Origin: a virus
Virus genome (UHGV): UHGV-0214148
Strand: one strand, 5' to 3'
DNA length: 64,000 nt
Numbering within the stretch: the stretch's first letter is position 1; each line of letters begins with the position of its first letter. The notes beneath the pieces were generated by a model. It was not told the origin of the DNA. It saw nothing but the letters and a program-made list of their open reading frames with translations, and made no database searches. The position numbers and the translations under genes were made by a program. This document shows positions 8,601 through 64,000 of this stretch, piece after piece.

Positions 8601-9858
8601 TCGGTTCGGCTTTAACGACAATATCTTTCTCGTGAACAGTCAGTGCTTCCCCGTAGGTTTCTTTCGGGTTATACGGGTTAGGTAGCTGAACGAAACGTTT
8701 AGACGATTCTGACAGGAACTGATATGCTTTAGAACTTAAGCGGCCCGCTTCAGCTAAGCGTTGTGCTTCCTGTTTAATAATCTCGTCATGTGGAATGACT
8801 TTCTCGACGACGATGGTCGTCGGTTTGACGTCTTCCTTCGGTTCTTCAATAACAACGTCTTCTTTTTCATCGAAGGTGTTATCGGACTCCACCACAGCGT
8901 CATTAACAACATCGTCATCGTCGACAACATCAACGGTTTCTTCTTCGACGTCTTTAAGGAAAACACGCTCGTCGCCTTCAGGCGTTAGGAATTCAGCTTC
9001 GTACGCGTTAGACGGTGCTTGTGTCATTACACGCACCAGCGTACGGTAGAACATCCTGGCCATTTGGTCATCACTTAAACGACCGCCGGACGACTTACGC
9101 ATTTTCTCTACAACACCCATGTTCATGGACGTAAAGCCCGTGTTGTGGGTGAAGATAAAGTTCATTCGTGACAGCTGAGTTAAATCCATTCCCGAGAATA
9201 AGGAATCGGATTGTTTTCCATAAGCCCAAGCAAACAACTCCAATAACCACAGCAAGTTAAAGTCCTGGAACTTCTCAATCTTGCTCTTAACGCGGTCGTT
9301 ATAGGTTGTTTGAAACTTCTGGAACGAAGGTAGAGTCGAACCCAGCTCAATAACGAAATAGTTCTGACGCATGTATTCTTGCGTGTCGTATTTGAACTGG
9401 TTAATCATCAACAGTTGGATGTTACGCAGTCTATCGTACCAGGCTAACTGGGTATCAGGATAGTAGTAGTGCGACAACATCGGTGTGTAGTTCTCGACCA
9501 GGAGAACTTTTAAGTCTTTGCGAACCAGATCGTCTGAGGTAAGACGACGCATTGGTCGGTTTGCACGGTGGTAAGCAAAGATAGCACGTTCTTGACCCTG
9601 AACAGGTTTGTTGCGCGGATGACCGCTAATACCGTCTTCCGGTAATTTAAAGTGGTGACGAACCTGTGCAGGTTTTTCTAACGGTTGAATAATCTCGAGT
9701 GTTGCAGGTGGCGCTAATACCACCTGGTCGAGATCAATGACATGGAGTACAGAACCACGTGGTATCTGTAGCTTCTCGAGCGGGATAATCCTCGGATTAC
9801 CAAACTCGTCAGTTTTACGCACCGAGAAGCGTTGGTTAAACTGTTTAATGAGCAGCAT
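5692..9858 (-). CDS. multisubunit RNA polymerase beta-subunit-like protein (N-terminal/central portion)
   Basis: 1388-aa ORF. [19 protein letters not shown] resembles bacterial RpoB [34 protein letters not shown] resembles FLEHDDANRALMGANM (bacterial sequences quoted from memory). Contains an acidic insertion ([12 protein letters not shown]). Adjacent to the beta-prime-like gene. Confidence 0.6.
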   Translation of the reverse strand: [1388 protein letters not shown]

Positions 9859-9867
9859 TGCTTAGCC

Positions 9868-11487
9868 TTATGGGTTCTTTAATAACGCTTGCGTTGCACG
9901 TTTAATCACGTTGTTGATAGGATTGATTTTAAAGTTCCCATCAGAATCGAACCAGTAGTTTTTCGAGTGTATCCAATTTCGGTTTTCCTCGAGCGCTTCC
10001 TGGGACATAGGCGCGTTAAACGACCCGGTATCGCCGTCGTAGTCACCTCCTAAGCCACCTAGACGTGAGGGGTGTGGTGCCATCGACTCAACGAAGGTAG
10101 GAACCGACCGGTCAGGGTAGCTGATAGCCCCTCGGGGTTTTTCAGTTTCCCAGTCATCTTCCAGTTCTTTTAAGTATAAAGATGACGTGGTGGTCTCCAA
10201 TCTTATGGTCGATGAATACGTCGAGCCTCGGCCTGTAACGGGATAACGTGTAACGAAACCGAAATAATCGTTCCAAAGTTCGTAGCCCGACAAATAAAGC
10301 AATTCGACGAGTGTCATACCGTGGACGAATTTTCGGTCAAACGTTTTAGGAAGTTCTTCAATATCGTAGAACACCTTAAAATGTTTGGTGTCTTGGTAAA
10401 CCAACGCAATGTAGTGGGTGTCATCCAACATAATCGGCTGATGGCGAAGCTCGCGAGCTTCCATTCGGTTGATTAAGGATTCAATCCCGTCGTCGGTGGT
10501 AAAGGTGTCGTATACACGACCACCTACTTCCAAGAATTCACGTTTAAGGGTTTTGGTGTTTACGCCGTAAAGGTTGCCATCACCAGCACGGATGTTACCG
10601 AGGTAACGTTCACGTATTTGGTACTGCGCAACAGGGAGTAATGCTTTTAAACCCTGGTATAAACCAATTTTGGTGTCGGTAGGACGAATAGCGTCTTCAC
10701 GACCCATGCACTTAGACCCCGTCGAGAACGAGGACAGTACGTTACGTGTCCCGTTCATTAATTTACGAGACGTAACCTTACGACGTTGGAAACCCCCTTT
10801 ACCGTCTTGGATGTTAAAGAAATACATCCAGATATCGTTGAAGGTTTGTTGCAGCTTCCAGCGCACGGGGTTAGTTAGTTCAACACGGGTTGCTCGGTCA
10901 GGGATCGCCCTGGCGAGTGATACCAACCGACGATACATCCCGCCGATTTCTTCTTCCTGTTCTCTACCATCTTGTCGAATTACTAAATCGCGTAAACCCG
11001 CGGGTAACACGAGAACGTATCGACTAAGACTAACGGGACGGAATTTCAAAAAGAAATCCACGGTTTCGTCACGTTGTAGGGACTCGTTACGCTTAGGTTT
11101 TAAATCGTTATAGTGACTGAGGAAGAAGTTAAAACCGGTATCTGCGCCTGGGTCTCCCGGCAAGGCCGGTTCGAAATCTTTTTCTTTTTCGCTCCAGGTT
11201 GCGTAGCGTTTTCCAGAACAAATTTCTTCGTAGAGTTGTTTGAGTTGGAATAACGCCAAACACACCGTCGGCGAAATGATATCGAGTTTAATATCGATAT
11301 AAGAGAAAGTAGAGTCTCGCGCTTCACTCCCCGTGAGTCCAAATATCTCTGTAGAGTAAAGACCTTCGGGGTGAAAGTTTTTTGTTAACCCCTGGAAAGT
11401 ATCCGTGGTCGTGACGGGTCGTAATCGCGACACAAGAGACTTGTTTACATTGAGCAGATAAAAGTCAACCCAATTAAGTTTATTCAC
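9868..11487 (-). CDS. multisubunit RNA polymerase beta-prime-subunit-like protein (N-terminal portion with catalytic DxDGD)
   Basis: 539-aa ORF, GTG start with AGGAG SD. GGDYDGDTGSFNAPMSQEA resembles NADFDGDQMAVHVPLTLEA; KGGFQRRKVTSRKLMNGTRNV resembles RpoC [21 protein letters not shown] (from memory). Confidence 0.65.
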   Translation of the reverse strand: MNKLNWVDFYLLNVNKSLVSRLRPVTTTDTFQGLTKNFHPEGLYSTEIFGLTGSEARDSTFSYIDIKLDIISPTVCLALFQLKQLYEEICSGKRYATWSEKEKDFEPALPGDPGADTGFNFFLSHYNDLKPKRNESLQRDETVDFFLKFRPVSLSRYVLVLPAGLRDLVIRQDGREQEEEIGGMYRRLVSLARAIPDRATRVELTNPVRWKLQQTFNDIWMYFFNIQDGKGGFQRRKVTSRKLMNGTRNVLSSFSTGSKCMGREDAIRPTDTKIGLYQGLKALLPVAQYQIRERYLGNIRAGDGNLYGVNTKTLKREFLEVGGRVYDTFTTDDGIESLINRMEARELRHQPIMLDDTHYIALVYQDTKHFKVFYDIEELPKTFDRKFVHGMTLVELLYLSGYELWNDYFGFVTRYPVTGRGSTYSSTIRLETTTSSLYLKELEDDWETEKPRGAISYPDRSVPTFVESMAPHPSRLGGLGGDYDGDTGSFNAPMSQEALEENRNWIHSKNYWFDSDGNFKINPINNVIKRATQALLKNP

Positions 11488-28339: not shown

Positions 28340-29181
28340 TAGATTAATCCCATACTTTCACTGACGCTCGTAATGTCGAACGTTGTGTCGTTAAAGTCGA
28401 TGTTTTCTACAATAGAAACCACCAGATTAGGAAGCCATTCTGAATGGGGTGGTGTAATAACCCGACCGTTCATAACGTAGTAATGCAAGAACGGTAATCC
28501 CATCGAATGACAGTACGATAACACATTACCTAAGCAGCTTCCGTCAAACTTCAAGAGTTGGAGTTTACGCAATAATGCGTTTTGAAATGCGCCGCTCGCG
28601 TAATTGCTAAACTCGCCAGGCCGATAATCCGTGCCCCCGTAAATACTCGCCTTTAATCGCCGACCGCGTTGTATACATTCAGCCCCAGTCAGGGTGCGTA
28701 ATAAACGGATGTCAGGATATTCAGTTTCCAAACGACCCAAAGCGTTTATTCCGTAACCCTTGTAGAACAGATAGTCTACGATCCTTAAATAATGATAGTA
28801 GCCTTCTAACGTTAAAAACTGACCGTGAATTGTGTCGAATTTCGCACCGTTAGGTTGCGCGTAGAAGTTACTGATCATTTTCCCTACGGTAGTACGACCG
28901 TTAGAATAAAGGTTAAGATGGTTGATACCATCAGTAAAAGGGAGTTTTTCGGGTAACGCACAAACGTAGCCTAAACGACGAAGGTATAGGACATAAACAA
29001 AGCGCTCATCAGGAGTAAGCACGATGTTTGACGCGTTAACGTATCCATTAGGATTATTTTGGCCAGGTTGATAACCCAACGTTAATGCCAGAGCGTGATT
29101 GTCTTCGCCCTGACTTTTGATCTTCTTTAATACGGAACGCAGTAATTGTGGTTCGGACATAACCGGCCTCTTAAATTGCAA
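28339..29181 (-). CDS. hypothetical protein
   Basis: 280-aa ORF, coupled to neighbours. Confidence 0.55.
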   Translation of the reverse strand: MQFKRPVMSEPQLLRSVLKKIKSQGEDNHALALTLGYQPGQNNPNGYVNASNIVLTPDERFVYVLYLRRLGYVCALPEKLPFTDGINHLNLYSNGRTTVGKMISNFYAQPNGAKFDTIHGQFLTLEGYYHYLRIVDYLFYKGYGINALGRLETEYPDIRLLRTLTGAECIQRGRRLKASIYGGTDYRPGEFSNYASGAFQNALLRKLQLLKFDGSCLGNVLSYCHSMGLPFLHYYVMNGRVITPPHSEWLPNLVVSIVENIDFNDTTFDITSVSESMGLI

Positions 29182-30445
29182 AATAGTCTTCCACGATTTT
29201 ATCGGTAGACTGGTAACTTACACTACCTGCAGCAATCACGTAATTACGTTTCTCGGTGGTCAGTAGCGCCTGAATCGCATTTACGCCTGCATAGGTGTAA
29301 AGTTTAAGTTCAGTCATTTCTGGCGTGATGTTTTTCGCTTTGTCCCATTTTGCATCTAATCCTTTAAATAACGTTAATAGACGAGTGCCATACGTTTTGA
29401 AACTAACACCGGGTTCAACCCGAAGGTTAGCCATAAGGTTCTGGATAACGGTGGTTGCGATCTGAGTCCCTTGCCCCGGTTGCAGTTTATCCAGATAGTA
29501 TTCCGTTGAATCCAGATTACCTGTCGCTGCTGCCTGAATCATCAGCTCGCCGTACAGTACCTCTTTCGCTTGCGCATCGGTAATCGCTTGAAGCATCGGT
29601 TCGATTTTAGCCGGTAAACCATAACTGTTCAGTTTGGTAGACAGGCCATAAATCAGCGCTGAAGAGGTATTAATGTCTAACGTGGAGAAACTGTTGCTGC
29701 CTTTAAAGCTGTTAATCAGGTTATCGATGGCTAGGAAGTCGTCCAAGTCTTTGTAGCTGTCGAAAGTATGCTGTACGTCATCAACGATCGAGGTGATTTG
29801 ATAACGCATACTGTTGACTTCGGACATAAACCCGTTGACTTCTTGGCTAACTTCCGAGGGGAGTTTAGCCAGTTGCCCAGCAATGTTCATCGTCCCTTCG
29901 AGACGTTTTTTCACCGAGTTAAAGTCAGTACCGATACCTGATAAAACAGAGTCGGTTAAGCTGCCGATGCTGTCCCACCCTTTATTTAACAGTTTCCCCA
30001 TTCCACCCGGACTTAGGTAGTCTAACGCTTTTAGGCCATCTTCATCCTTTTTCTTAAAAGGTTCAGAAACGTCACGCTTTTGTGGGTCGAGGACAGGAAG
30101 CGTTTCTTTGGTATTAGATGCAAAACCGGGAACCTTTTGTCCTGGAGATACACCGGAAGCCGAACTCCCCGCAGTCTTACTTCCCCCAACACTGGCGGTA
30201 TCGCTACCGCCAAAAAGGTTACCAATTTTGCTGGTCAGTTCGTTGCCGCCGCTAATCAGTTTGTTGAATGTTTCACCCGCACGTTCTGATAATCGGTTGA
30301 CGCTATCGACCGTGCTTTTAATACCACGCTCCGCATTCTCCACCGTCGATTGTACGCGGTTTGCGGCGTTCTTTGCCGTATTAACGGAATTATCGATTGC
30401 TGACTGACCTTTATTTATCTGACTGGTTATTTGGTCGATTTTCAT
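29171..30445 (-). CDS. hypothetical protein
   Basis: Track ORF 29171..30472 begins at a TTG; the internal ATG at 30445 has a GGAG SD and is preferred. Low-complexity Ser/Gly/Thr-rich N-terminal half. Confidence 0.5.
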   Translation of the reverse strand: MKIDQITSQINKGQSAIDNSVNTAKNAANRVQSTVENAERGIKSTVDSVNRLSERAGETFNKLISGGNELTSKIGNLFGGSDTASVGGSKTAGSSASGVSPGQKVPGFASNTKETLPVLDPQKRDVSEPFKKKDEDGLKALDYLSPGGMGKLLNKGWDSIGSLTDSVLSGIGTDFNSVKKRLEGTMNIAGQLAKLPSEVSQEVNGFMSEVNSMRYQITSIVDDVQHTFDSYKDLDDFLAIDNLINSFKGSNSFSTLDINTSSALIYGLSTKLNSYGLPAKIEPMLQAITDAQAKEVLYGELMIQAAATGNLDSTEYYLDKLQPGQGTQIATTVIQNLMANLRVEPGVSFKTYGTRLLTLFKGLDAKWDKAKNITPEMTELKLYTYAGVNAIQALLTTEKRNYVIAAGSVSYQSTDKIVEDYFAI

Positions 30446-31256
30446 TCTGGTCTCCAATTTGGTATTCGTCAAGGTTTACCGTGACCTGAACTTCGTAGAT
30501 TTTATTGTCTTTCTGACGCCTTAAGGTCAGAAGGATTTCGAAACTACGAACATCAATTGCCTTGAGTACCCTCATAAACCATTTCCAGGAAAACTTCTTT
30601 TTTAACCTTAGATTGTGCTGCATGTTGTGCCGCAAATCATTTCGTTTCGACGGCGTCTGCTCACAGTTAGCAGGATCGTTAACGAAGTTTGTGGAAAGAC
30701 GGTACCACCAGTCCGCATTCATTTTCATGTTTGCGAAGATAGTCCAAGTTAGCCGAGATAACGGATGTACCATCATCTTTGCGGTCTCACCACAGTTCTG
30801 GAAATAACGGTTCAATTGCGCAGTTGCAGACTCTTTAGGTCGTTCGTCGTTATCTTCGAACAAATCCCGAGCGAGATCTTCACGCACGCGTGTGGTAATT
30901 TCAGATACGGTTTTTGTTTTGAAGTGTCCTCGGTAAGTGGTTACACAAATCCGCAGTGTCTCCACTCCGGTAATCACCAACCCTTCTGTAAAACCTCGCC
31001 AGGTAAGATCGACAGGTAGTGCAGGGATGTTACCTGAACTCAGCTTCGTGGAGATACGTTGTATTCGATCGTCCATCGTTGCTTTTGAACGTGTTTTAAA
31101 TTCTGGAGACAGAATATGTTTGGCGACGGCGAGTTTATAATCCGAAGGCTTCCATCCGATCAATTCTTTATAATTCCAATATAGTGTTTGAAGTGGTCCG
31201 CCTGCACGTTCGTCTTCAGCGTCCACGACCACACTTACTTTTTTGCTATCCATCAC
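30411..31256 (-). CDS. hypothetical protein
   Basis: 281-aa ORF. Confidence 0.55.
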   Translation of the reverse strand: MMDSKKVSVVVDAEDERAGGPLQTLYWNYKELIGWKPSDYKLAVAKHILSPEFKTRSKATMDDRIQRISTKLSSGNIPALPVDLTWRGFTEGLVITGVETLRICVTTYRGHFKTKTVSEITTRVREDLARDLFEDNDERPKESATAQLNRYFQNCGETAKMMVHPLSRLTWTIFANMKMNADWWYRLSTNFVNDPANCEQTPSKRNDLRHNMQHNLRLKKKFSWKWFMRVLKAIDVRSFEILLTLRRQKDNKIYEVQVTVNLDEYQIGDQNENRPNNQSDK

Positions 31257-52470: not shown

Positions 52471-52656
52471 CTAATTCCGCCATTCGCATTCGCGTTGACG
52501 CCAAATTGAACCCCACGATAGTTTAATCAGATAAGATGAAACTACCCATAAAATCATCACCACACAAAACATGACATAAAGAACCGCTAGAATGGACATG
52601 AAGCCAAACCCTGCCGCATCCACAATACGACGGAACCAATCAGTTTGCATAAACAA
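52471..52656 (-). CDS. small membrane protein (61 aa)
   Basis: Track ORF; long hydrophobic core FGFMSILAVLYVMFCVVMILWVVSSYLI; GAAGGAG SD. Confidence 0.45.
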   Translation of the reverse strand: MFMQTDWFRRIVDAAGFGFMSILAVLYVMFCVVMILWVVSSYLIKLSWGSIWRQRECEWRN

Positions 52657-55144
52657 TTTTTACTCCTTCGTTATACACCGCAGGCAATGTCACCCCTTCC
52701 GGTTCGATGACACAGTACGATGCTTCATTAAGTTTAGAATGAACCTCGGCTTCGTGGGAGACTACCAACAGTTGGGAAAATTCTCCCGAGTTTGCTAACG
52801 TTTTAATAAAGCCGACCAGGTTGTTACGGTGCTCCTCATCCATGCCTTCCGAAGGCTCATCCAAAAGCAACGGAAACTGATGCAACTTCAGCGCTTTGTA
52901 CGCAGTCAGCCTGAACATCAGATTAAATATCGCACGCTGCGCCTTAGATCCTTTACGCACGTCAGGAACAGGCTCAGGATGCGTTTTTAGCTGGACAGGA
53001 AAAGTATAATCCAAATCGCCGTCAGTGAGGTCACAAGGCATAACGCGCATGGGGTACGTCCAGACTTGTTCGATATAACGCGTCATTAACTCTGTGATTC
53101 TAACGATAGCGTTGTAAAAATACTTTCTAAGTACACCCTTTTCTGGCGAGAAGGCTTGAATCATCAGTTTGTTATTGAACTGCTGGGCTTGTAAGTCAGC
53201 AAGTTCGCGTTCCAAACTGTTGAGCTGATTCAATTCATTTTCCATCTGACGATAACGTTCGCGTGCGGTTGTAAAAGCATCCAGCTTCCCTTCTCGAGCA
53301 CGTAAGAGTTCCTCGACGACTGTATTTGTCAACGTAACCTTAACATCACTCTCTAGCCGTTCGAATAACGCACTGAAATCATCTACAGCACGTTTAACAT
53401 TCACCAGATAGGTAAGTGTCGTGTTAGCCAGTTCGTGCTCTCTACGACGCATTGAGAGCATTTCTGTGGCTTTACCTAATCGCGACTGTTGGAAGGCGAT
53501 TTTCTGTTGTAAAGCGCCATCGACGTTACCAACGGCCGCTACGGCATCCTGCCATTCTTTTTCCGCCTTCACTAACCGTTGTCGGGTTTCATGATACTCA
53601 ATAGCAGAGTACAACTCGCTGTCAAACGCTGCGCATAGACTCCCGAACTGTTCACGTGATTCAGTGAAGACGTTACGTTCTTGCAAACGCTTAAAGAACA
53701 TGCTCAATACCGGGTCCTTTGAATACGTCAGTACAATCTCACGAACCTGCCGCATATAAGTTACATCAGATTCTAATTCAACACGATAGCGTAATAGGGC
53801 CTCTAACTGTGTTTGCAGTTCCGTGCGCTGCTGTTGTTGTCCGCGAATCGAAGACTCAAGTTCAGGTAAAGAACGCGTAACACCGGGCCGAAACTTAAAC
53901 CGACACTGCGGGCAATCCACTTCCGCTGTTTCTAAGTAGTGATTACGCTCGTGATTTAAATTCTGTAAAACGTTCTCCACTCGCTGGAGTCTATCCCGCA
54001 ACCCTGCGGTTTTTTGATCCATCACCAGAAGCCGTTCTTCCAAAACATTGAGTTTTTCGGTTGAATGAATTGCGTCCAGCGTTGTTCCTAACCGTTGCCC
54101 CCAGACACGCGCGTCGGTAGCCGCACGAAGTTGGTCTAAATTGACGTTGTCGTTAAATAGACCCGGAAAGAGATGCTCGGTGTCCCATTTGGTAAGTAAC
54201 TCACGTAAACGCGCCAATGTATTCTTGAGACCTTCGTGATTCCGCATCAGGTAGTCTTGTCGTGTTGACTCATCCATCAATAACGACAAGTCTTTATTCA
54301 ACATCGATACCTCTGTTTCAGTAGACACGACAGCTTCGCGGGCCGTCGCTTCGTTTTGTCGCGCGACCAGTATCTGTTCATCGGTAGGCAGGCCACCACG
54401 ATGTTGTAATATTGCGTCGATGGTTGGGCCCAAGCTGTTTAATAACGCTTGGATTGTTTCGATGGTGACGGCACGATTTAATCCTGGCAACTGTTCGATT
54501 TCTCGGTTCAATTCACGTAAATCCGATTCCAAACCTTTTAATCTCGTCGCTAACTGCTGCCGTTCTTCCTCGTTCTCAATAACACGCGTCCGTAATTCGG
54601 CGATCTTGCGGCTGGTGATTTCAATACCCCCATTTAAGGCAGTAAGGTTTTTACGTAAACGTTGATAAAACCCTAACGCGTAAGTGAGGTCAGAGGTACT
54701 TAAACGGTAAAACCATTTGCGGCGTAATTCGGTTCCCGCATCGGTTAACAACACCTCACCATTTAATAGTTCTTTAATCTCTTTCGTAATACCCGTGATT
54801 TCTTCAACACGGGAGTTGTAGACTTTCGCATTACCTTGCTCGACGATCTTTGTCCCCGTGGTCAGGTTCTCAATATCGCAAACCAAAGAGTTGCCTTTAC
54901 GGGCAACTTTGAATCGATAGCGTTGATCGCCAACTAAACAGTAGTTCGTGTAAGAACCGCCGTCCCTGAATTCAGTTTTAGCTGGTGCTAAGGGTAAGAA
55001 CACAGACAGTAGACTGGTTTTCCCGCAGCCGTTCCCACCCAGGATAATTGTTGTCGGAGACTGGATAGTGAAATCGAAGGTTTCAATTTCATGTAACCCC
55101 ATCCCCGTAAAACCTTTGAGTATAATGCGTTCAACTTTTAGCAT
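52640..55144 (-). CDS. Rad50/SbcC-like SMC-family ATPase
   Basis: Walker A GGNGCGKTS at N-terminus; long coiled-coil centre with CPQC zinc-hook-like motif; C-terminal LLLDEPSEGMDEEH (Walker B) and VVSHEAE. Start set to ATG at 55144 (GGAGGTG SD). Confidence 0.75.
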   Translation of the reverse strand: MLKVERIILKGFTGMGLHEIETFDFTIQSPTTIILGGNGCGKTSLLSVFLPLAPAKTEFRDGGSYTNYCLVGDQRYRFKVARKGNSLVCDIENLTTGTKIVEQGNAKVYNSRVEEITGITKEIKELLNGEVLLTDAGTELRRKWFYRLSTSDLTYALGFYQRLRKNLTALNGGIEITSRKIAELRTRVIENEEERQQLATRLKGLESDLRELNREIEQLPGLNRAVTIETIQALLNSLGPTIDAILQHRGGLPTDEQILVARQNEATAREAVVSTETEVSMLNKDLSLLMDESTRQDYLMRNHEGLKNTLARLRELLTKWDTEHLFPGLFNDNVNLDQLRAATDARVWGQRLGTTLDAIHSTEKLNVLEERLLVMDQKTAGLRDRLQRVENVLQNLNHERNHYLETAEVDCPQCRFKFRPGVTRSLPELESSIRGQQQQRTELQTQLEALLRYRVELESDVTYMRQVREIVLTYSKDPVLSMFFKRLQERNVFTESREQFGSLCAAFDSELYSAIEYHETRQRLVKAEKEWQDAVAAVGNVDGALQQKIAFQQSRLGKATEMLSMRRREHELANTTLTYLVNVKRAVDDFSALFERLESDVKVTLTNTVVEELLRAREGKLDAFTTARERYRQMENELNQLNSLERELADLQAQQFNNKLMIQAFSPEKGVLRKYFYNAIVRITELMTRYIEQVWTYPMRVMPCDLTDGDLDYTFPVQLKTHPEPVPDVRKGSKAQRAIFNLMFRLTAYKALKLHQFPLLLDEPSEGMDEEHRNNLVGFIKTLANSGEFSQLLVVSHEAEVHSKLNEASYCVIEPEGVTLPAVYNEGVKIVYAN

Positions 55145-55194
55145 ACCCACCTCCATAAAGACGGAGTGTGGTGTAAAAAGAAAAAAATAAAGAA

Positions 55195-56430: not shown

Positions 56431-56820
56431 TCAAAGATCTAATTCGATAGCACCAGCCATCTTGCCCCGTTCTTCTATAACGATCAGATAACGGTCGCGA
56501 GATTTGCTTTTAGCGAGAGTTAAGACAACGGTAGGGTCGCACGTTTTCGTGGTGATAGGAAGAACCTCTCTTGCGACGGAATCGAGCAGAAAGTAATAAC
56601 CTGCGGGACACATTGTGCCGCCATCAGCTTTTACCAGAATATAGCGCCCGTCTGCGCCGACTTCTTGGCAGATTGTTTCACCGACTTCGCAAACTTCAAA
56701 CCCCGGAGGATTGTACTGGTAATCGGTATTGTTGTTTGGGGTTAGCAGTAAATCGTTAACTTGAGTAGATGCTGCTACACTCAGGGAGAAGAAGAATGCT
56801 AAAACGCAGACGAGACGCAT
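56431..56820 (-). CDS. small secreted Cys-containing protein (paralog of 56831..57241)
   Basis: 129-aa ORF; signal peptide MRLVCVLAFFFSLSVAAS; mature part has CQ...G.RY...GG..C pattern shared with neighbour. Confidence 0.55.
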   Translation of the reverse strand: MRLVCVLAFFFSLSVAASTQVNDLLLTPNNNTDYQYNPPGFEVCEVGETICQEVGADGRYILVKADGGTMCPAGYYFLLDSVAREVLPITTKTCDPTVVLTLAKSKSRDRYLIVIEERGKMAGAIELDL

Positions 56821-56830
56821 GAGTTACTCC

Positions 56831-57241
56831 TTAAATTTTAAGTTTATCCATAGCTACAACGATAGGTTTTTCCGAAGTGTCTAATATCCCTACCATTGGC
56901 ACACCATCTACGACTTCGAAGAATGGTTTGTTATTACCAGAGCATAGACGTTTGTCGTTGTATTCGAGACGCTGAGCCTTCCACGTTTCGAGGTTGAGTA
57001 CGGACATTGGGCTGTCGTAGCACCAGGCACCACCTTGCTCAACGATGAATACGTATCTGCTACCTTTGTATTTAAACAGGCTCTTTGCCTGGCAGTACAA
57101 CCCGTCTATTTCCGTACAATAGAAATCATCGGTGCTATTGACGTACTTAATATTGTCTGGCAACTGTATTGTCTTTGCTGTAGCGTTGACAGAGAACAGA
57201 ACAGCCATTGCAATGAGAAGAGTATTAATGATAGTTTTCAT
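56831..57241 (-). CDS. small secreted Cys-containing protein
   Basis: 136-aa ORF; signal peptide MKTIINTLLIAMAVLFSVNATA; shares Cys pattern with 56431..56820. Confidence 0.55.
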   Translation of the reverse strand: MKTIINTLLIAMAVLFSVNATAKTIQLPDNIKYVNSTDDFYCTEIDGLYCQAKSLFKYKGSRYVFIVEQGGAWCYDSPMSVLNLETWKAQRLEYNDKRLCSGNNKPFFEVVDGVPMVGILDTSEKPIVVAMDKLKI

Positions 57242-57252
57242 GATAAAAGTCC

Positions 57253-57738
57253 TTAGTATTTAGATTGTTCTACGTACTTCTTAACCAGGTAAGCGAATTC
57301 GGCAACACCGATATCACCGAACCAAATCAGGTAACCGGGGTCGATGTTGTAGTAATAACCGACGAGTTTCTTGGTGTGTGGGTTGTATAGCGTTACGATG
57401 TATTCCCAACCACAAGCGTTAGCTTTACAACCGCCACTTTCAATCCAGATTTTGTTGTTGATGTTTACCGGATACATGTTACCGCCAGGGCCATCCATGT
57501 AACCTTTAGAGCCGAACATACCATCCAGTCCCACAGGGTCTAGTGTTTTATCAACAACGGCTTTAAACGACTTATCGGTATCGTACAAGTCGTTGATGTT
57601 TGGGCACGCATTTGGCTGGCCTTCCCAAGCGTTTCCATCACAGGTAAGCAATTCGTCTACGGAGGCCGCATCTACAGTTGGCGTGGCACCGATAAACAAG
57701 AAAACCAGAAAGAACATCAGTGTATGTAAACGTTTCAT
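57253..57738 (-). CDS. small secreted Cys-containing protein
   Basis: 161-aa ORF; signal peptide MKRLHTLMFFLVFLFIGATPTVDA. Confidence 0.55.
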   Translation of the reverse strand: MKRLHTLMFFLVFLFIGATPTVDAASVDELLTCDGNAWEGQPNACPNINDLYDTDKSFKAVVDKTLDPVGLDGMFGSKGYMDGPGGNMYPVNINNKIWIESGGCKANACGWEYIVTLYNPHTKKLVGYYYNIDPGYLIWFGDIGVAEFAYLVKKYVEQSKY

Positions 57739-57756
57739 TGTAACTACTCCTTTAGA

Positions 57757-58149
57757 TTATTCGGCAGGACGATTTAAGGTAACGCGTCCGATTAATTCAG
57801 CGTTGTGAAAGAAGTCCACAGCGGTATAGTTACCAACTGATAGCGGATGGATACTAACTGACATTACTTTTGGTTGTTCGCAGGCGATATCCGTCAGGCG
57901 TTGGTAGACTTGTGCACGAGTGTCAGCAATGAGTAATCCCGTACACGTTTCACCACGCACTAAACGATAAACTTGCAGTTTACCGAAACTGCGCATTAAC
58001 GTAGGCGTCTCATCCGGGTTGATAATCGGTGACTCAGGAGCCGGTTCGTAATAGCGGACATCCGAATCACCGAAAGCATAAGTGCCAGTAATTCCGACCG
58101 CACAGAAAACAATGATAGTATAAAGTATAGTTCTGATATTCATTTTCAC
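57757..58149 (-). CDS. small secreted protein
   Basis: 130-aa ORF; signal peptide MKMNIRTILYTIIVFCAVGITGTYA. Confidence 0.55.
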   Translation of the reverse strand: MKMNIRTILYTIIVFCAVGITGTYAFGDSDVRYYEPAPESPIINPDETPTLMRSFGKLQVYRLVRGETCTGLLIADTRAQVYQRLTDIACEQPKVMSVSIHPLSVGNYTAVDFFHNAELIGRVTLNRPAE

Positions 58150-58171
58150 GCACTCTAAAAAAGATTAATAC

Positions 58172-58633
58172 TTATTTGTTAGGACGGGTGTGTCCACAGT
58201 TCTGGAAGAAAGTTTCAGATAAACGATCGCCTTCTACGGTAAAGTTAGCGGCATCGTTACCATTGATACTCACACTGAAAGTTTTGGCATTACCGATAGC
58301 AATAACGAAAGCAACCCAAGCGTGTTCTGCCTTGTCGCTACCGTCCACGGTAGGGATGTTATAGGTTTTGCCGTTTACGACAATATCCATCGTGTTATCT
58401 TCAGCGTTAGTTGCACCTACGGGTTCCCCGTAATACCAAACCATGCGACCGTAAAATTTGCGATTCACAGTTTCTGTGTCACAGTTGATAGACAGTCCGT
58501 TTCCGGCGGTGTCTTCGATTTCGTAAACTGCCTGGCCAGGGTTTTGTATTTGTTCCCAACTATTGATTGCAGCGTATGCGCTATTGAGGCCGAAAGTTAA
58601 AATGGTTATTAAGAATGTGATAAAGGTTTTCAT
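58172..58633 (-). CDS. small secreted protein
   Basis: 153-aa ORF; signal peptide MKTFITFLITILTFGLNSAYA. Confidence 0.55.
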   Translation of the reverse strand: MKTFITFLITILTFGLNSAYAAINSWEQIQNPGQAVYEIEDTAGNGLSINCDTETVNRKFYGRMVWYYGEPVGATNAEDNTMDIVVNGKTYNIPTVDGSDKAEHAWVAFVIAIGNAKTFSVSINGNDAANFTVEGDRLSETFFQNCGHTRPNK

Positions 58634-58679: not shown

Positions 58680-59051
58680 TTAAATAACTGTGTTGGGTAA
58701 TGCTTTAATCTGTGTATAACTATCTCCGATACCTCTTATCATTTCCAGACGCTCTTCTGTAGAAAGGCTTTGGTTAATGTCTTTGTCAAGATTGAACAGT
58801 GTCAAGAGTTTTGCAATTGCAACCGTCAAGTTGTCGGACAGCTCGTTGTTTTTACGCCATTCTTCGTTACGGAAAATAGAGATAAGGTCTTTCGCCTGGC
58901 CTTCAGCGTGCGGTTTGGCTAACTGCGCGTCACGCTGTTCGATAAGGTATGCTTCGTTAGTAAGTAAACGTTTCAGGTTTTCTGGGTTAGTGGCAGCGCG
59001 AGTAACGATCATTAATACAACAAACGGGTCTTTAAATAATTCGTTTTTCAT
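58680..59051 (-). CDS. hypothetical protein; paralog of 173..562
   Basis: 123-aa ORF; N-terminal 15 residues identical to ORF 173..562; homologous upstream region. Confidence 0.7.
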   Translation of the reverse strand: MKNELFKDPFVVLMIVTRAATNPENLKRLLTNEAYLIEQRDAQLAKPHAEGQAKDLISIFRNEEWRKNNELSDNLTVAIAKLLTLFNLDKDINQSLSTEERLEMIRGIGDSYTQIKALPNTVI

Positions 59052-59100
59052 CTTTAGTTCTCCTAAAATGGTTTTCGTTAAGTGAGAGCTTTTGTACTCT

Positions 59101-59125
59101 CACCTAAGTAATATATATCTGAAAT
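59101..59125. promoter_or_regulatory. AT-rich promoter-like motif CACCTAAGTAATATATATCTGAAAT
   Basis: Between terminator hairpin 59158..59177 and the start of gene 58680..59051; preceded by imperfect inverted repeat AGTGAGAG/CTCTCACC. Confidence 0.4.
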
Positions 59126-59157: not shown

Positions 59158-59177
59158 GGTGGGGGTAAACCCCCACC
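59158..59177 (-). terminator. stem-loop terminator (GGTGGGGG / CCCCCACC)
   Basis: 8-bp GC stem, TAAA loop, preceded on plus by AAAAAAATAAAA; directly upstream (minus sense) of motif 59101..59125. Confidence 0.6.
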
Positions 59178-59181
59178 GATG

Positions 59182-59760
59182 TTATACATCGAACCGATAC
59201 TGCCGGGAGTTAATGAGGAATTCGGTATTCAGCTCAATCCATTCGAGTAAATCACCCAACGGTAATCGGTTTGGGTTTTCTAACTCAATAGACGCTACCG
59301 GATAAGAGTTTACTAATTCCGTAATTGTATCAATACCCTCTTGCGTTCCATCGTCTTCTAAGGTGATTGTAAACGGCATATCGGTACGATCCGCATTAGG
59401 ATTGTACAAACTGACTTTTGTTGCTTGGACAAACGCAGACAGGTCGTCACGTATAATGCGTGTATCAGGCGATAGAACTACCCAGAGATGCTGCCCTGGC
59501 TGGAGTTTACGTTTTGCGTAGTTTAAGAAAGGACTTGCCATCAAGTTTTCCAAACCACAACAGATGCTACGTAACTGTATTCCGCGCGGATCTCGGTAAT
59601 CCACATCGAAAATTCCCACAGGTTCATTCGCTGCCTGTTTTATCAGAAAGGCCAATACCGTGTCCGCTCTTTCTGGTAAGGAAAGCTCTATTCCCTCAAG
59701 CTCCCCATCGACGAGATTTTCTAACCAAACGTCTTTTCGCATTTCTATTAATCGGTACAC
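59182..59760 (-). CDS. hypothetical protein
   Basis: 192-aa ORF. Confidence 0.55.
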   Translation of the reverse strand: MYRLIEMRKDVWLENLVDGELEGIELSLPERADTVLAFLIKQAANEPVGIFDVDYRDPRGIQLRSICCGLENLMASPFLNYAKRKLQPGQHLWVVLSPDTRIIRDDLSAFVQATKVSLYNPNADRTDMPFTITLEDDGTQEGIDTITELVNSYPVASIELENPNRLPLGDLLEWIELNTEFLINSRQYRFDV

Positions 59761-59772
59761 GGTTCCACCTCA

Positions 59773-60546
59773 CTAATAATTAAGTTTTACATCGGCAATA
59801 AACAGCAATTGTTTACCATGTTGCTGCACTTCTTTCCAACCTAGTTTCATAGCAGCGTCAACAACATCTAACATGCTGTAACGGGACATCAAAGATTCTG
59901 ATTTTGTTCCTGACATTAAGTAAAGTGGCTCATTAGGGCTACGGTCACGTGCGTCAGGAAGTTCCCGAGAGACTGCTGATCCTTCGGGTACGGTAACAAC
60001 ATGAATCACGGTAAATGGTCTCTTGTGCGTCAGATAGATACGAAACCCAACGTGTTCAGATTCATGAAAGACTTTCTTCACAACCACATCTTTTAGTGTC
60101 GTCTGAACATCAGCCCCAGGTAATATCGTGGTTTCACGTGAAACGAAACAACGGCTATTTTCAATCGTGGAGAAATAATTACGTATCGGCAAACTAGCGT
60201 TATGATCGCGCAGTTTTTTGCTCAGTAGATCGAAGTTCAGTTCTTTAACCTTTTCTAGCCATTCTTTGGCTTGTTGAATGTAATAACTACCAACAGCGCG
60301 ATAAGTTAATACCTTACCTGTGCTCACTTGCCAGAGCTTGATGCTTAGTGAATTTGGCTTATAGCGACGATACTCACCACGCGTATAGTTGATGCGCTCG
60401 TAACGCTCTACACCGTCAACGGGTGCAGTTTCGACCGATTGTAATTGCAGCGTACGATCTAATCTATCGGCAAATAGTAGTGATGTTAGCGGGCCTTCGA
60501 TCATATACGGTTCGGTTTTAAAGATATCGTCTAAATGGACTTTCAT
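59773..60546 (-). CDS. hypothetical protein, GW/QLLF C-terminal motif family (member 1)
   Basis: 257-aa ORF ending ...AAMKLGWKEVQQHGKQLLFIADVKLNY. Confidence 0.6.
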   Translation of the reverse strand: MKVHLDDIFKTEPYMIEGPLTSLLFADRLDRTLQLQSVETAPVDGVERYERINYTRGEYRRYKPNSLSIKLWQVSTGKVLTYRAVGSYYIQQAKEWLEKVKELNFDLLSKKLRDHNASLPIRNYFSTIENSRCFVSRETTILPGADVQTTLKDVVVKKVFHESEHVGFRIYLTHKRPFTVIHVVTVPEGSAVSRELPDARDRSPNEPLYLMSGTKSESLMSRYSMLDVVDAAMKLGWKEVQQHGKQLLFIADVKLNY

Positions 60547-60568
60547 TTCTATTTCCTTCTTAACAAAA

Positions 60569-60587
60569 GCCGCGACTAAAGCGCGGC
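60569..60587 (-). terminator. stem-loop (GCCGCG / CGCGGC) between paralog family members
   Basis: 6-bp GC stem with A-rich plus-side flank. Confidence 0.4.
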
Positions 60588-60613
60588 AGTTAGAGAAAGT
60601 GTATTTTCACTTA

Positions 60614-61765
60614 TTAGAGGTCAGCAACAAACAACAGCTGACTGCCGTATTTTTGCACGTCAGCCCAACCGTAGTCTTTCCCGATTATAGGTAGATGTAA
60701 AATATCCAGCTTCTCGTCTTTCGCTTTTAGTTTCGCCATTAACGCATTGGACTCCTCAGCACTGAGGAGTAATGCTGGCTCTTTTTCAGTACGTCCTTCT
60801 GCGGTTGGGAAGAAATTGTAATAGCTGCGAGTAGGTAAATCGACAGAAAAACTACGATTGCCTATTCTGGCGATGAACGCAACTCCTTCACAGTTAGCAT
60901 CTACACTGCACGACCATCCCGCCTCCGTTAAAAGACCTTTTAACAGACACCACACTTTAAGTTGGTTCTTAGAAACTGTACGGTAAATAGCAAGATGTTC
61001 AGGAAGTAAATGTACGCCCATAACCACGTTTTCAGATTTCTCGTCAAGCAACTCTGGATGCTGTATCGGGAACAATAATTCAGTGATACCCACGTTATCA
61101 ATTTTGTTAACAAAATCAGTTAATTCATCTTTTAAGGTAGACACTTGATTTTCTCCTTTGTCTTCAATAATCAGGTGGGGTTCGCCGCTAATTAAAATGT
61201 GGTAAACGAGATCGTCAGTAGAACGGTAAGTGAGCTTGATTGCTTTATCACTTAATATTTCGTAGCGGAAGAAACTTTCGTACCAACTTGAGCCGAAATC
61301 GTTTTGTGTAAGCTCCTGCTCAACTTTGATGGTTTTTGCTTCAAAGCCGATTAACTCGCTTAATAACGCGAGTTCTTGTTTAGTTAAAATAGCTACACCG
61401 TGAAAGGGCACTTGTTCAAGCTGAAAACATAACTTAGTGACTTCACCATTTGGGAAGACCTTAAACATAATCTTCCGGTTGCTACTCTTTTCCCTAACAA
61501 CGAGTTTACGGTAATTTAGTCCACAATTTGTGTAAGCCGCGAACTGGTAACCTTCAATTTCTTCATCGGAAGTACAGACATCGACAGGCGCGATAATCTC
61601 ATCGTATTCACTAAGTACACAGCAGCCCAATTTATAACCAAACAACGTATGTTGTAAAAAATAGTCGAGGGTTAAGCTTGGTAGTGGCCAAGCCCGATTA
61701 TAGCATCTGTCCATCAGTTCTTTTAGGTACTTGGCATGTCTTGGTTTAGAAATAATATTTCGCAT
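60614..61765 (-). CDS. hypothetical protein, GW/QLLF C-terminal motif family (member 2)
   Basis: 383-aa ORF ending ...GKDYGWADVQKYGSQLLFVADL; FFPTAEGRTEKEPALLLSAEESNALMAKLKA parallels member 3. Confidence 0.6.
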   Translation of the reverse strand: MRNIISKPRHAKYLKELMDRCYNRAWPLPSLTLDYFLQHTLFGYKLGCCVLSEYDEIIAPVDVCTSDEEIEGYQFAAYTNCGLNYRKLVVREKSSNRKIMFKVFPNGEVTKLCFQLEQVPFHGVAILTKQELALLSELIGFEAKTIKVEQELTQNDFGSSWYESFFRYEILSDKAIKLTYRSTDDLVYHILISGEPHLIIEDKGENQVSTLKDELTDFVNKIDNVGITELLFPIQHPELLDEKSENVVMGVHLLPEHLAIYRTVSKNQLKVWCLLKGLLTEAGWSCSVDANCEGVAFIARIGNRSFSVDLPTRSYYNFFPTAEGRTEKEPALLLSAEESNALMAKLKAKDEKLDILHLPIIGKDYGWADVQKYGSQLLFVADL

Positions 61766-61796
61766 TTTTACTCTCCTTTAGGGGTTTTTTCGTTAC

Positions 61797-62351
61797 TTAA
61801 GCAGGGCAAGCTAAGAACAACAACTGCTGACCGATTTTACGTACGGTATACCAACCGTGGGCTTTAGCGACCGCGATCAACGTTTCCCAGTCATCAACAT
61901 CACATTGCTCGTTCCGAAGTTTTGTAAAGAGTGCTTCGGCTTCGTCTTGGTTTAATAACTTACCTGGATTATCAGGGGTGGTGCCAGAAGGGGTTGGAAA
62001 GAAATCGTATTGACACGCTAAGAGAAAATCAACCAGATACTTGGTGTTCTCTTTATAAACCAGCGTGGAAGTCTTCCCTTCGTGGAAGAAGCTGCCTGTT
62101 TTCCAAACGCTATCTTTCAGTAAGCTCTGAAGGTAATCTGTAAAGCCCGTTCTAAATGGGATATGCGTTTTACGCGTGATGTTGCGACGCAGCGGGGTTT
62201 CCTCTACAGCTTGTACACTTACCCCTACTATCATCGCACCTGGCTGGATAATGGTATTGGTCAGTACGGTATAAGGACGGACAAAGAAATGTTCGCCTAC
62301 GCCTTTTTCAAGGGTTTGGATAATTTCATTTTTCAGTTCAGTTTGAAACAT
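61797..62351 (-). CDS. hypothetical protein, GW/QLLF C-terminal motif family (member 3)
   Basis: 184-aa ORF ending ...AKAHGWYTVRKIGQQLLFLACPA; FFPTPSGTTPDNPGKLLNQDEAEALFTKLRN block. Confidence 0.6.
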   Translation of the reverse strand: MFQTELKNEIIQTLEKGVGEHFFVRPYTVLTNTIIQPGAMIVGVSVQAVEETPLRRNITRKTHIPFRTGFTDYLQSLLKDSVWKTGSFFHEGKTSTLVYKENTKYLVDFLLACQYDFFPTPSGTTPDNPGKLLNQDEAEALFTKLRNEQCDVDDWETLIAVAKAHGWYTVRKIGQQLLFLACPA

Positions 62352-62377
62352 GGTATATTCTCCTTTTAGGTTTTTAC

Positions 62378-63112
62378 TTACGCGGTTTTAATTAGCAGCA
62401 GATAGCCCTTCGTAATCTCAGCACAACTCCACCCTTTTACGGCAGCGACACCACGAAGGTAATTTTCTGTGTGATACTGTAAAAACGGATCGTCTGGATT
62501 AATCTCAACTAGGTGAGTGGCTTTAGAAATCGTTTCCGCCTCTGGGATTTGTTTTGTTAAGCCTGATGCAATCAGTTCAATAACGCGGTATCCCTCTAAC
62601 CAAGAAACATAGATACGTAAACCGTATAACTTACCGTTATCTTTTAAGGGATAAAGACTGATGCCCCGGCCGAGCAACGTTAATTCTACATCAGTGGGAA
62701 GGTTTTCTACATGCTTGATTAACCCTACCCCATGTCTAAACAGTGGGAAGTAAGAGTATAGCGTCAGCATACTGCTTCCTCCAATAAACGTAACATCGGA
62801 AACGGTAGGCGTGCTGGCAATGAGGCGAACATGTTCCGCTACGACTTCAAGTTCGGCGTCACTGATCAATTTATAGAATAAAATGACGCTGGTTTCGGTA
62901 TTAAGAACAAAGAAGAACCGGTTGGCGTGACTGCTTATCGTGTATTCGTCAACCATGCTGTCGATAACGTCACTGTCTGGATAATCTTCGGGTTTAATTG
63001 TTTCAGCAGAGACTAACTTAGCAGGTTGGGATTGCCCTATTAGTTCATTAACCACCGTAGAAGAAAGTTCTAAACTGGTGTTAGTAAAGATATCGTCTAA
63101 TAATTCACTCAT
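62378..63112 (-). CDS. hypothetical protein, probable divergent member of the GW/QLLF family
   Basis: 244-aa ORF ending ...AAVKGWSCAEITKGYLLLIKTA (weaker match). Confidence 0.5.
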   Translation of the reverse strand: MSELLDDIFTNTSLELSSTVVNELIGQSQPAKLVSAETIKPEDYPDSDVIDSMVDEYTISSHANRFFFVLNTETSVILFYKLISDAELEVVAEHVRLIASTPTVSDVTFIGGSSMLTLYSYFPLFRHGVGLIKHVENLPTDVELTLLGRGISLYPLKDNGKLYGLRIYVSWLEGYRVIELIASGLTKQIPEAETISKATHLVEINPDDPFLQYHTENYLRGVAAVKGWSCAEITKGYLLLIKTA

Positions 63113-63453
63113 GATTTACTCGCTAATCTCAATAAAGGGGAGTCTATTATTATGGATTGTAAAAGAGGTATAAGGAAGTCACTACGTTCCTCTGGGAAGA
63201 GTATGTCGGTATACTACGTATACCTCCGCTATTTATATCCGTATACATAATGCCCCCTACCCCCTACCGGTATCCCGAGTAGCAGAATAAAGGGGCAGAC
63301 TGTAAAATTTTAGTACCTGTTATCGGAAGGTACTAAATGGAGTGTAGTCTTTAAGCCGTTTGAGCAGCTCATTGAGACTTTCTTTCTTTTTAGTAGACAT
63401 GATCTGTCTCCCCAAATGGTTTAATCAATCCGTTTCGAATGAAACGTGTCCGT

Positions 63454-63480
63454 AGGGGCTGAACTGGCACTTCAGCCCCT
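63454..63480. terminator. stem-loop (AGGGGCTGAA / TTCAGCCCCT) adjacent to promoter-like motif
   Basis: 10-bp perfect stem; flanks are not strongly U-rich in either direction, so function is uncertain. Confidence 0.35.
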
Positions 63481-63483
63481 ATT

Positions 63484-63508
63484 CACTTAAGTAATATATA
63501 TCTGAAAT
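63484..63508. promoter_or_regulatory. AT-rich promoter-like motif CACTTAAGTAATATATATCTGAAAT
   Basis: 24/25 identical to the 59101 copy; directly after hairpin 63454..63480 and about 25 bp upstream of the plus-strand start at 63534. Confidence 0.4.
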
Positions 63509-63533: not shown

Positions 63534-64000
63534 ATGGAGAAATCCAGTGTTGATTTTTTCTCAATTGGTATCGTCGCGGAAGACAAACCCCGTGGTACAG
63601 ATCGGGTAAAAGTGATACCAATTGAAACCAACTTTGCTAACCCTACCGTGGTGCAATCTGTTTCTTCAGCAACTGAAAAGACGCATGAAACGTCTGGCGC
63701 AACAGATAACCTAACCATTAAGACGGGTAACACGATAACAGCAAAGTGGTGGAAGTTTAACTCCAACCGAATTAATTCCCCTGACGTTAAACGAGAAGAC
63801 TACGTTATCTTGTTACGTTTGGGGAAAACCGATATTTATTTTTGGATTGATCTGAACTTCGCTAACGTTAAGCGATTAGAAGATGCGGTTTATGCGTGGT
63901 CGGCTGACCCTGAAAACCAAATGGCGGATGACTTGTCCAATGCGTATGTGTTGAACGTTTCGACGATTGACAAACATATCACGCTAAGAACAAGTATGGT
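63534..64000 (+). CDS. hypothetical protein, partial (continues beyond window end)
   Basis: ATG at 63534 with AAGGA SD 8 nt upstream; open to window edge (155 codons, hand-translated). Preferred over the antisense track ORF 63479..63766. Confidence 0.5.
   Translation, partial: MEKSSVDFFSIGIVAEDKPRGTDRVKVIPIETNFANPTVVQSVSSATEKTHETSGATDNLTIKTGNTITAKWWKFNSNRINSPDVKREDYVILLRLGKTDIYFWIDLNFANVKRLEDAVYAWSADPENQMADDLSNAYVLNVSTIDKHITLRTSM

Follow-up and report, generated by a model that had tools for sequence, protein, structure and literature searches.

The window analyzed here, a 64,000-nucleotide stretch of viral DNA (UHGV virus genome UHGV-0214148), contains a tandem array of four minus-strand genes, which we call A257, B383, C184, and D244, and a fifth gene, E192, which comes next after A257. 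The open reading frame (ORF) list confirms the coordinates and lengths given for the four array genes by a first-pass annotation of the same DNA. The genes of the array are as follows, with isoelectric points (pI) of the encoded proteins.

59773-60546, minus strand: A257, 257 residues, a body and the C-terminal module (module DNA 59776-59991); basic, pI 9.1; best-conserved member
60614-61765, minus strand: B383, 383 residues, an N-terminal body followed by a C184-like middle domain and then the module (encoded at 60617-60838); pI 5.4
61797-62351, minus strand: C184, 184 residues, the middle domain followed by the module (encoded at 61800-62024); pI 6.1
62378-63112, minus strand: D244, 244 residues, a remote full-length paralog of A257 whose C-terminal module (encoded at 62381-62527) is degenerate; acidic, pI 4.8

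The genes are separated by gaps of 26, 31, and 67 nucleotides. The array proteins differ in charge, and sequence prediction describes all four as soluble, with neither a signal peptide nor a membrane-spanning segment. The SMC-like protein of the window (52640-55156) shares 70-71% identity with its counterparts in Erwinia phages Asesino, Stratton, and phiEaH2; with the protein encoded by Salmonella phage SPN3US, identity is 58%. By homology, the window is assigned to an SPN3US/phiEaH2-type chimallivirus with a genome of about 222 kb. The family Chimalliviridae of nucleus-forming jumbo phages includes Erskinevirus, Seoulvirus, Machinavirus, and Derbicusvirus. The phage collection that we searched holds no close relative of the window at the DNA level, and tblastn against it returned no match to B383 at E <= 1e-3 and none to D244 at E <= 1.

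A257, B383, and C184 share a C-terminal module of about 70 residues, which is marked by the conserved segments hP[DE]..[DE]R[ST].N[DE]P.YL[ML]S and GW..V...G.QLLF. The pairwise similarity is significant in blastp (A-B 2e-9, B-C 2e-13, A-C 2e-5) and in hhalign profile-profile alignments built from seven to eight orthologs per gene (A-B probability 96%, E 1.9e-9; B-C 97%, E 2.4e-11). A hidden Markov model (HMM) of the module matches A257 with an E-value of 4e-22, B383 with 3e-14, and C184 with 1e-17 (1.4e-17). The first-pass annotation had assigned this ending to all four genes; the assignment holds for these three, and for D244 it is backed by weak agreeing evidence, described below. The FFPT-containing block that had been noticed in B383 and C184 is borne out by a blastp alignment of the two proteins covering 108 residues. 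In AlphaFold models of B383 (residues 331-381) and D244 (residues 199-241), the module has the order beta-alpha-alpha-beta-beta, that is, a strand, two helices, and a hairpin. The B383 model is confident in its C-terminal half. The module is mildly acidic.

The motif had been said to fit no known family, and searches agree with this. Pfam, scanned with the four proteins and 100 family members, NCBIfam, and PDB-sequence profiles yielded nothing meaningful, and PADLOC defense profiles gave no match to the array proteins beyond a marginal one to DpdF (E 0.024). No virion protein family was matched in Pfam, and all PHROG matches are to families of unknown function. At 50% identity, the module family comprises 103 clusters among 1.84 billion representatives, in which the module stands alone in proteins of 72-130 residues or occupies the C-terminal or N-terminal end of longer ones. 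A word-indexed protein search with a short module profile retrieved only six proteins, and a 100-sequence profile retrieved mostly B383 orthologs. We interpret the module from its distribution as an autonomous, portable domain, and its family as restricted to SPN3US-type chimalliviruses and their metagenomic relatives.

D244 is probably a remote homolog and a member of the family, as indicated by four lines of evidence that are individually weak and agree with each other. The alternative, which we consider unlikely, is that the family has three members only and that D244 is an unrelated orphan whose terminal hairpin (GW...LLLI) resembles the module by chance. The module was not detected in D244 by pairwise blastp, nor by an HMM search with all filters off, which gave nothing at E <= 1. 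A D-family profile of 31 sequences, reaching down to 50% identity, matches the 100-member module profile with an E-value of 1.9e-4 and a probability of 47%; the match places the last 25 columns on the last strands of the module in the same C-terminal register. Profile-profile probabilities for D244 reach just 38-47%, and only 2% against a small module profile of eight sequences. The C-D and B-D comparisons in hhalign are not significant, and a short motif of this kind can arise independently, since the profile's hairpin part is also matched by an unrelated SH3b repeat protein. Against the chance explanation, the A-family and D-family profiles align in hhalign with an E-value of 3.3e-4 over 232 collinear columns, starting at residue 1 and ending with the C-terminal hairpin. 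Forty null comparisons, made with reversed alignments and unrelated neighboring families, gave E-values of 0.005 or higher and at most 79 columns, so that the A-D alignment beats the best null by a factor of about 15. It pairs LDDIF, G[FL]RIY, P[DE]A..[RT].S (ELPDARDRS in one protein and KQIPEAETIS in the other), and the GW hairpin in preserved order. The AlphaFold model of D244 (mean predicted local distance difference test score, pLDDT, 88; predicted template modeling score, pTM, 0.82) ends in the same strand-helix-helix-strand-strand succession as that of B383. The best Foldseek matches of D244 in the viral structure library BFVD are uncharacterized Erwinia jumbo phage proteins of 319, 333, 356, 411, 423, 235, and 223 residues. 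Seven of the top 14 matches fit, by length and by phage where it is named, the module-bearing proteins found at the corresponding locus of relatives, and two were verified as such (EarlPhillipIV gp170 with 356 residues and the 223-residue gene of phiEaH2). The Foldseek scores are weak, with a best E-value of 1.4e-4 and a template modeling (TM) score of about 0.2.

The domain layouts of the four proteins point to a common history. C184 aligns over its full length to residues 210-381 of B383 (hhalign, 167 columns). A257 and D244 align over their full length, and their body is distinct from that of B383. The alignments thus define C184 as the middle domain plus the module, B383 as a body joined to a C184-like half, and A257 and D244 as a different body followed by the module, which is degenerate in D244. 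Because C184 corresponds to one half of B383, and A257 and D244 share a body, we interpret the four genes as diverged paralogs that originated by tandem duplication with gain, loss, or fission of domains. The earlier description of different N-terminal regions joined to a common ending is therefore only partly right: the bodies vary, but C184 corresponds to B383's C-terminal half, and A257 can be aligned with D244 from end to end. In L005, a related phage, the B383 ortholog (8334-9485; E. coli assembly GCA_026204915.1) is intact except for one in-frame stop, at codon 234. The stop falls at the junction of the N-terminal body and the C184-like half. Unless it is a sequencing error, this nonsense allele is compatible with dispensability of B383 and with fission as a route to a C184-type gene.

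Divergence of the array was compared among eight related phages (the window and L003-L009), or seven in the case of B383. The median pairwise ratio of nonsynonymous to synonymous substitution rates (dN/dS) is 0.13 for A257, 0.33 for B383, 0.21 for C184, and 0.26 for D244. Values so far below 1 indicate that all four genes are real, functional, and under purifying selection. Protein identity of the window to three relatives is 81-95% for A257, 70-81% for B383, 48-78% for D244, and 42-44% for C184, compared with 65-96% for the flanking genes, which makes C184 the most divergent gene of the neighborhood. The relatives rank differently from gene to gene: L003 is 48% identical to the window in D244 and 92% in A257, and L004 is 70% identical in D244 and 81% in A257. 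The synonymous divergence (dS) of C184 and D244 is 1.2-1.4, compared to about 0.5 for A257 and E192. Within each gene of the array, conservation is higher in the module than in the body. Positive selection was not detected, as gene-wide and region-wide dN/dS values are all well below 1. Since the high divergence of C184 and D244 is accompanied by high dS, their variability points to old, exchanged (mosaic) alleles and not to accelerated change. The array had been proposed to be a diversifying accessory family. Its restriction to one lineage and the variation in copy number and body length fit this proposal, but the dN/dS values and the lack of detectable positive selection do not.

The locus of the array is conserved in relatives. 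The first gene past a divergently transcribed homolog of the putative SPN3US structural gene gp173 carries the module in every cultured relative. The module genes at this locus are:

SPN3US gp175: 412 residues
Asesino gp195: 223 residues
Phobos gp176: 319 residues
CR5 CR5_165: 364 residues
pEa_SNUABM_29 00258 (pEa_SNUABM_29_00258): 423 residues
Caitlin gp184: 277 residues
Machina gp185: 235 residues

The module of A257 is 36-45% identical to those of SPN3US gp175, CR5_165, and Phobos gp176. The HMM detects one module per locus in SPN3US, Asesino, Phobos, CR5, and pEa_SNUABM_29, where the single-copy orthologs range from 223 to 423 residues, two in Caitlin, and three in Machina. Machina gp186 and gp187 are true paralogs, and the Machina locus has expanded independently at the same position. 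Every member of the window's clade has three HMM-detected modules and D244 at the locus. Gene order and array size do not vary among the nine clade genomes examined (the window, L003-L009, and NZ_CP173450.1). A survey of copy number in related phages, which had been suggested as a check, thus found variation between genera, with one, two, three, or three plus one module genes, but none within the clade.

The array is part of a predicted transcription unit with the following features, given in the order of transcription after the divergent gene that bounds it.

63534-64000, running past the window end, plus strand: homolog of SPN3US gp173 and Asesino gp193 ('putative structural protein'), 70-80% identity in tblastn
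63484-63504, minus strand: early-promoter-like motif CAGATATATATTACTTAAGTG, which heads the unit and is conserved in eight phages
63455-63479, minus strand: stem-loop GGGGCTGAA-loop-TTCAGCCCC right after the promoter motif, at the presumed 5' end of the transcript; it has no T-run and is thus no terminator
63320-63400, minus strand: candidate micro-ORF MSTKKKESLNELLKRLKDYTPFSTFR of 26 codons; it precedes all other ORFs of the unit and is flanked by the promoter hairpin and the invariant block
63170-63294, minus strand: near-invariant non-coding leader block of about 125 nucleotides, between the micro-ORF and D244
60569-60587, minus strand: terminator-like hairpin GCCGCG-CTTTAGT-CGCGGC with a trailing TTTTGTT, located between B383 and A257 and found in a terminator scan
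59182-59760, minus strand: E192, homolog of SPN3US gp177 and Asesino gp197 (phrog_20879), unrelated to the family and co-transcribed with it
59158-59177, minus strand: strong intrinsic-terminator-like hairpin GGTGGGGG-TTTA-CCCCCACC with a T-run, which ends the unit after E192
59101-59121, minus strand: next copy of the early-promoter motif, immediately past the terminator

From the motif onwards, the unit is composed of a hairpin, the micro-ORF, the leader block, D244, C184, B383, a second hairpin, A257, E192, and the terminator. E192 starts 12 nucleotides past A257, and its hhalign E-values against the four array proteins are 0.06-0.9. The gp173-like gene is a conserved left boundary of the locus, in an arrangement common to all relatives. 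The first-pass annotation had the array bracketed by terminators, which does not hold: upstream are a promoter-like motif and a 5' hairpin that lacks a T-run, one hairpin is inside the array, and the strong terminator is located after E192.

The promoter-like motif is situated in the 415 nucleotides between the array and the divergent structural gene. It occurs three times in the window, compared with 0.01 copies expected, and all copies are intergenic, on the minus strand, and co-oriented with the next gene. Its strict core, TATATATTAC, is present in seven copies in a complete related genome, compared to 1.7 expected. These copies, too, are intergenic, all on one strand, and oriented like the gene that follows. 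They stand at the head of operons made up of small hypothetical genes and of the operon with dihydrofolate reductase, and none of the seven precedes a recognizable structural gene. The motif matches promoters predicted for phiKZ, TATATTAC, and for 201phi2-1, ...BTATATTACDWHDGTG (PMC7058600). According to a review, motifs of this kind, where tested, are early promoters read by virion-packaged RNA polymerase (PMC7598289). By analogy, we consider it likely that the array unit is expressed early.

All eight phages keep the stem-loop next to the promoter motif; its loop varies, and one change in the stem is compensatory, from GGGG/CCCC to GGAG/CTCC in L004. A comparable hairpin (about 59075-59100, minus strand) directly follows the promoter copy at 59101-59121. 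The compensatory change suggests that a stem-loop on the 5' end of early transcripts is under selection. The stem of the hairpin between B383 and A257 is identical in seven of eight phages, with one substitution next to the loop in L005, and the intergenic region as a whole is 98% identical.

The near-invariant leader block is one of the two most unexpected side findings of the analysis. It has two variable positions among eight phages, in comparison to flanks that are about 60-70% identical and to a dS of about 1.2 in D244. A G-rich tract, GGTAGGGGGTAGGGGG, and a perfect palindrome, GGTATAC-GTA-GTATACC, are found within the block. The window has a single copy of the block, which is confined to the clade and has no match in Rfam and no blastn match in the phage collection. 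Ten viral contigs share exact 18-mers with the leader; six of the ten cannot be aligned to it, and these matches are probably due to chance. The predicted RNA fold is weak (z-score -1.6 to -2.1). The block could act as a regulatory RNA or as a DNA site to which a protein binds. An ORF of 25-26 codons is found at the position of the upstream micro-ORF in most of the eight phages, with coding-like nucleotide variation and a one-nucleotide gap in L005.

The units neighboring the array have further small genes. F123 (58680-59051, minus strand) and a 129-residue ORF at 173-562 on the same strand are paralogous, as both begin with MKNELFK and belong to phrog_27024. Each comes after a terminator and, next to it, a copy of the early-promoter motif. 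L003-L007 and L009 lack F123, and L008 is arranged differently there; F123 thus looks like an inserted promoter-plus-gene cassette. The next early unit, 56431-58633 on the minus strand, encodes at least four small proteins of 130-161 residues with signal-peptide-like N-termini, which are apparently secreted early proteins. The ortholog of one of them was flagged as PF27224 (YfjT) in precomputed matches, and our own Pfam scan found nothing. L008 has two tandem YfjT-like genes (9057-10009; 151 and 152 residues) where the other phages have one, which is another small duplication in this early region.

Close relatives of the window are found among Shigella, E. coli, and Salmonella assemblies, where they form contigs of about 222-227 kb, many of them of about 225 kb. 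Two circular records of the clade are labeled as plasmids, one of 221,873 bp from E. coli strain 98232, a urine isolate (NZ_CP173450.1, L027-L032), and one of 222,441 bp from Enterobacter ludwigii (NZ_CP134650.1). The presence of a phage as a 'plasmid' in bacterial isolates is the other of the two most unexpected side findings. As chimalliviruses are regarded as strictly lytic, these records suggest a carrier state or co-purified phage DNA. The recurrence of the clade in clinical and animal Enterobacteriaceae assemblies may matter for phage persistence. The E. coli record also encodes two adjacent radical SAM proteins (28603-30724, L028), a DNA adenine methylase, several GNAT acetyltransferases, and an XRE-family regulator.

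We propose, with moderate confidence, that the array encodes lineage-specific, soluble, non-structural accessory proteins, expressed from an early operon and equipped with a conserved partner-binding module. We favor this reading because of the probable early promoter, the restriction to one lineage, the independent expansions, and the portable, stand-alone occurrence of the module. The unit would be transcribed right after infection by virion-packaged RNA polymerase from its TATATTAC-type promoter. The module would serve as a common interaction domain, for docking or oligomerization, with a conserved partner of phage or host origin, and different activities or specificities would come from the variable bodies. 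The proteins would then have an accessory role in early infection and not in virion structure. Host takeover or counter-defense, which the first-pass annotation had raised along with an anchoring or delivery function of the module, is a plausible but hypothetical role, and the anchoring or delivery function is hypothetical as well. Several points weigh against this proposal. The membership of D244 is based on weak statistics, and the early-promoter assignment on analogy. A257 and E192 are located beyond the internal hairpin, and their expression may therefore differ from that of D244, C184, and B383. The lack of positive selection and the stability of the array within the clade fit a housekeeping early function as well as an arms race. 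SPN3US gp175 is not mentioned in the SPN3US literature examined; where that literature appears to name a 'gp175', it refers to the phiKZ protease gp175. Fold searches of the array proteins gave no functional lead.

Other functions can be envisaged for the array. The proteins might be virion-associated, either as tail accessories or packaged and ejected with the DNA, with the module as an incorporation or targeting domain. The array indeed adjoins tail and structural genes, namely that of the gp173-like protein and those of the essential SPN3US tail proteins gp168 and gp171, and phiKZ-like phages carry families of paralogous packaged proteins (PMC5694885). However, the array is divergent from the structural genes and behind an early-type promoter motif, it has no match in Pfam, where the phiKZ internal-protein family is included, or in a PHROG 'head/tail' family, and the annotations of Machina, Phobos, and Caitlin flag neighboring genes, in the first two phages the upstream ones, but not the module genes, as coding for virion proteins. 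We therefore regard a virion function as very unlikely. It is highly improbable that the module binds nucleic acids as a winged-helix-like domain and that the proteins act as early regulators of transcription or DNA. The order of its secondary structure elements resembles the winged-helix core, one family member has a marginal Pfam match to the TBPIP/Hop2 winged-helix domain (E 0.009), and A257 is basic; yet nucleic-acid binding by the module is disfavored because of its mildly acidic character, and the combination of structural or profile similarity to winged-helix proteins with a basic recognition helix was not found. That the bodies are extremely diverged folds of the sliding-clamp or processivity-factor type, acting with the phage replication machinery, seems scarcely credible.

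We also offer an extended version of the accessory-protein proposal, which is speculative and quite unlikely to hold in full. The module could be a chimallivirus-specific docking domain that brings interchangeable effector bodies to one early hub, such as the injected-genome vesicle, the nascent phage nucleus, or a host complex. Flanked by the highly conserved 125-nucleotide leader on one side and by the conserved A257 gene on the other, the locus could be an exchangeable early-effector cassette, and these two flanks could both control expression and anchor recombination that swaps the C184 and D244 alleles between phages. If the module does dock, it would provide a handle for finding the early hub that it binds. 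Only a minor part of what nucleus-forming jumbo phages express within minutes of infection has been characterized, and the array defines a domain family outside the curated libraries. Natural variants are at hand in the form of stand-alone modules, N- and C-terminal fusions, and the nonsense allele at a domain junction.

The domain family of about 70 residues is previously undescribed and absent from curated families; its setting, tandem paralogs in an early accessory region of a jumbo phage, is a known one. The hairpin of bacterial SH3b (SH3_3) repeats, 'GW.kV...G..G.V', resembles that of the module, 'GW.EV..YG.QLLF', and the SH3b protein P0119 matched part of the module profile ten times. 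SH3b repeats lack the N-terminal half of the module (PD..DR[ST].N[DE]P.YLMS and two helices), and about 24 profile positions match. An identification of the module as an SH3b repeat was thus rejected as a short-motif coincidence. The packaged (inner-body or ejection) protein families of phiKZ-like phages are like the array in being tandem or clustered, chimallivirus-specific paralogs with conserved and variable parts. In contrast to the array, with its early-type promoter, its lack of Pfam matches, and the absence of a virion annotation in relatives, they are late, packaged into the virion, and processed by the prohead protease.

The closest counterparts of the array are SPN3US gp175 and its positional orthologs, among them phiEaH2 AFQ96642 (223 residues) and EarlPhillipIV gp170, which contain the same module with HMM E-values of 1e-18 to 1e-27. 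Weaker matches are found in Machina gp186 and gp187 (about 1e-9) and in Caitlin gp185 (4e-4). The module genes of the relatives, all annotated as hypothetical proteins, have the same position past the divergent structural-protein gene and upstream of the SMC-like gene, at 2.5-6 kb from the latter, and in several relatives, as in the window, a TATATwTTAC motif is nearby. Most SPN3US-type relatives have a single copy, with a body that cannot be aligned to those of A257, B383, or D244, whereas the window's clade has four genes and lacks homologs of SPN3US gp174, gp176, gp178, and gp179. E192 and SPN3US gp176-179 belong to families unrelated to the module genes. Among PHROGs of unknown function, the C-terminal ends of phrog_26772, phrog_33648, phrog_24489, and phrog_18480 match A257 and B383 with E-values of 5e-11 to 2e-3, and C184 and D244 have no match to these four. 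PHROGs therefore already catalogue A257- and B383-type sequences, but as separate full-length families in which the shared domain is unrecognized. The module family, split there into at least four unrelated-looking groups, occupies one fixed early locus and has been expanded in copy number independently in two lineages.

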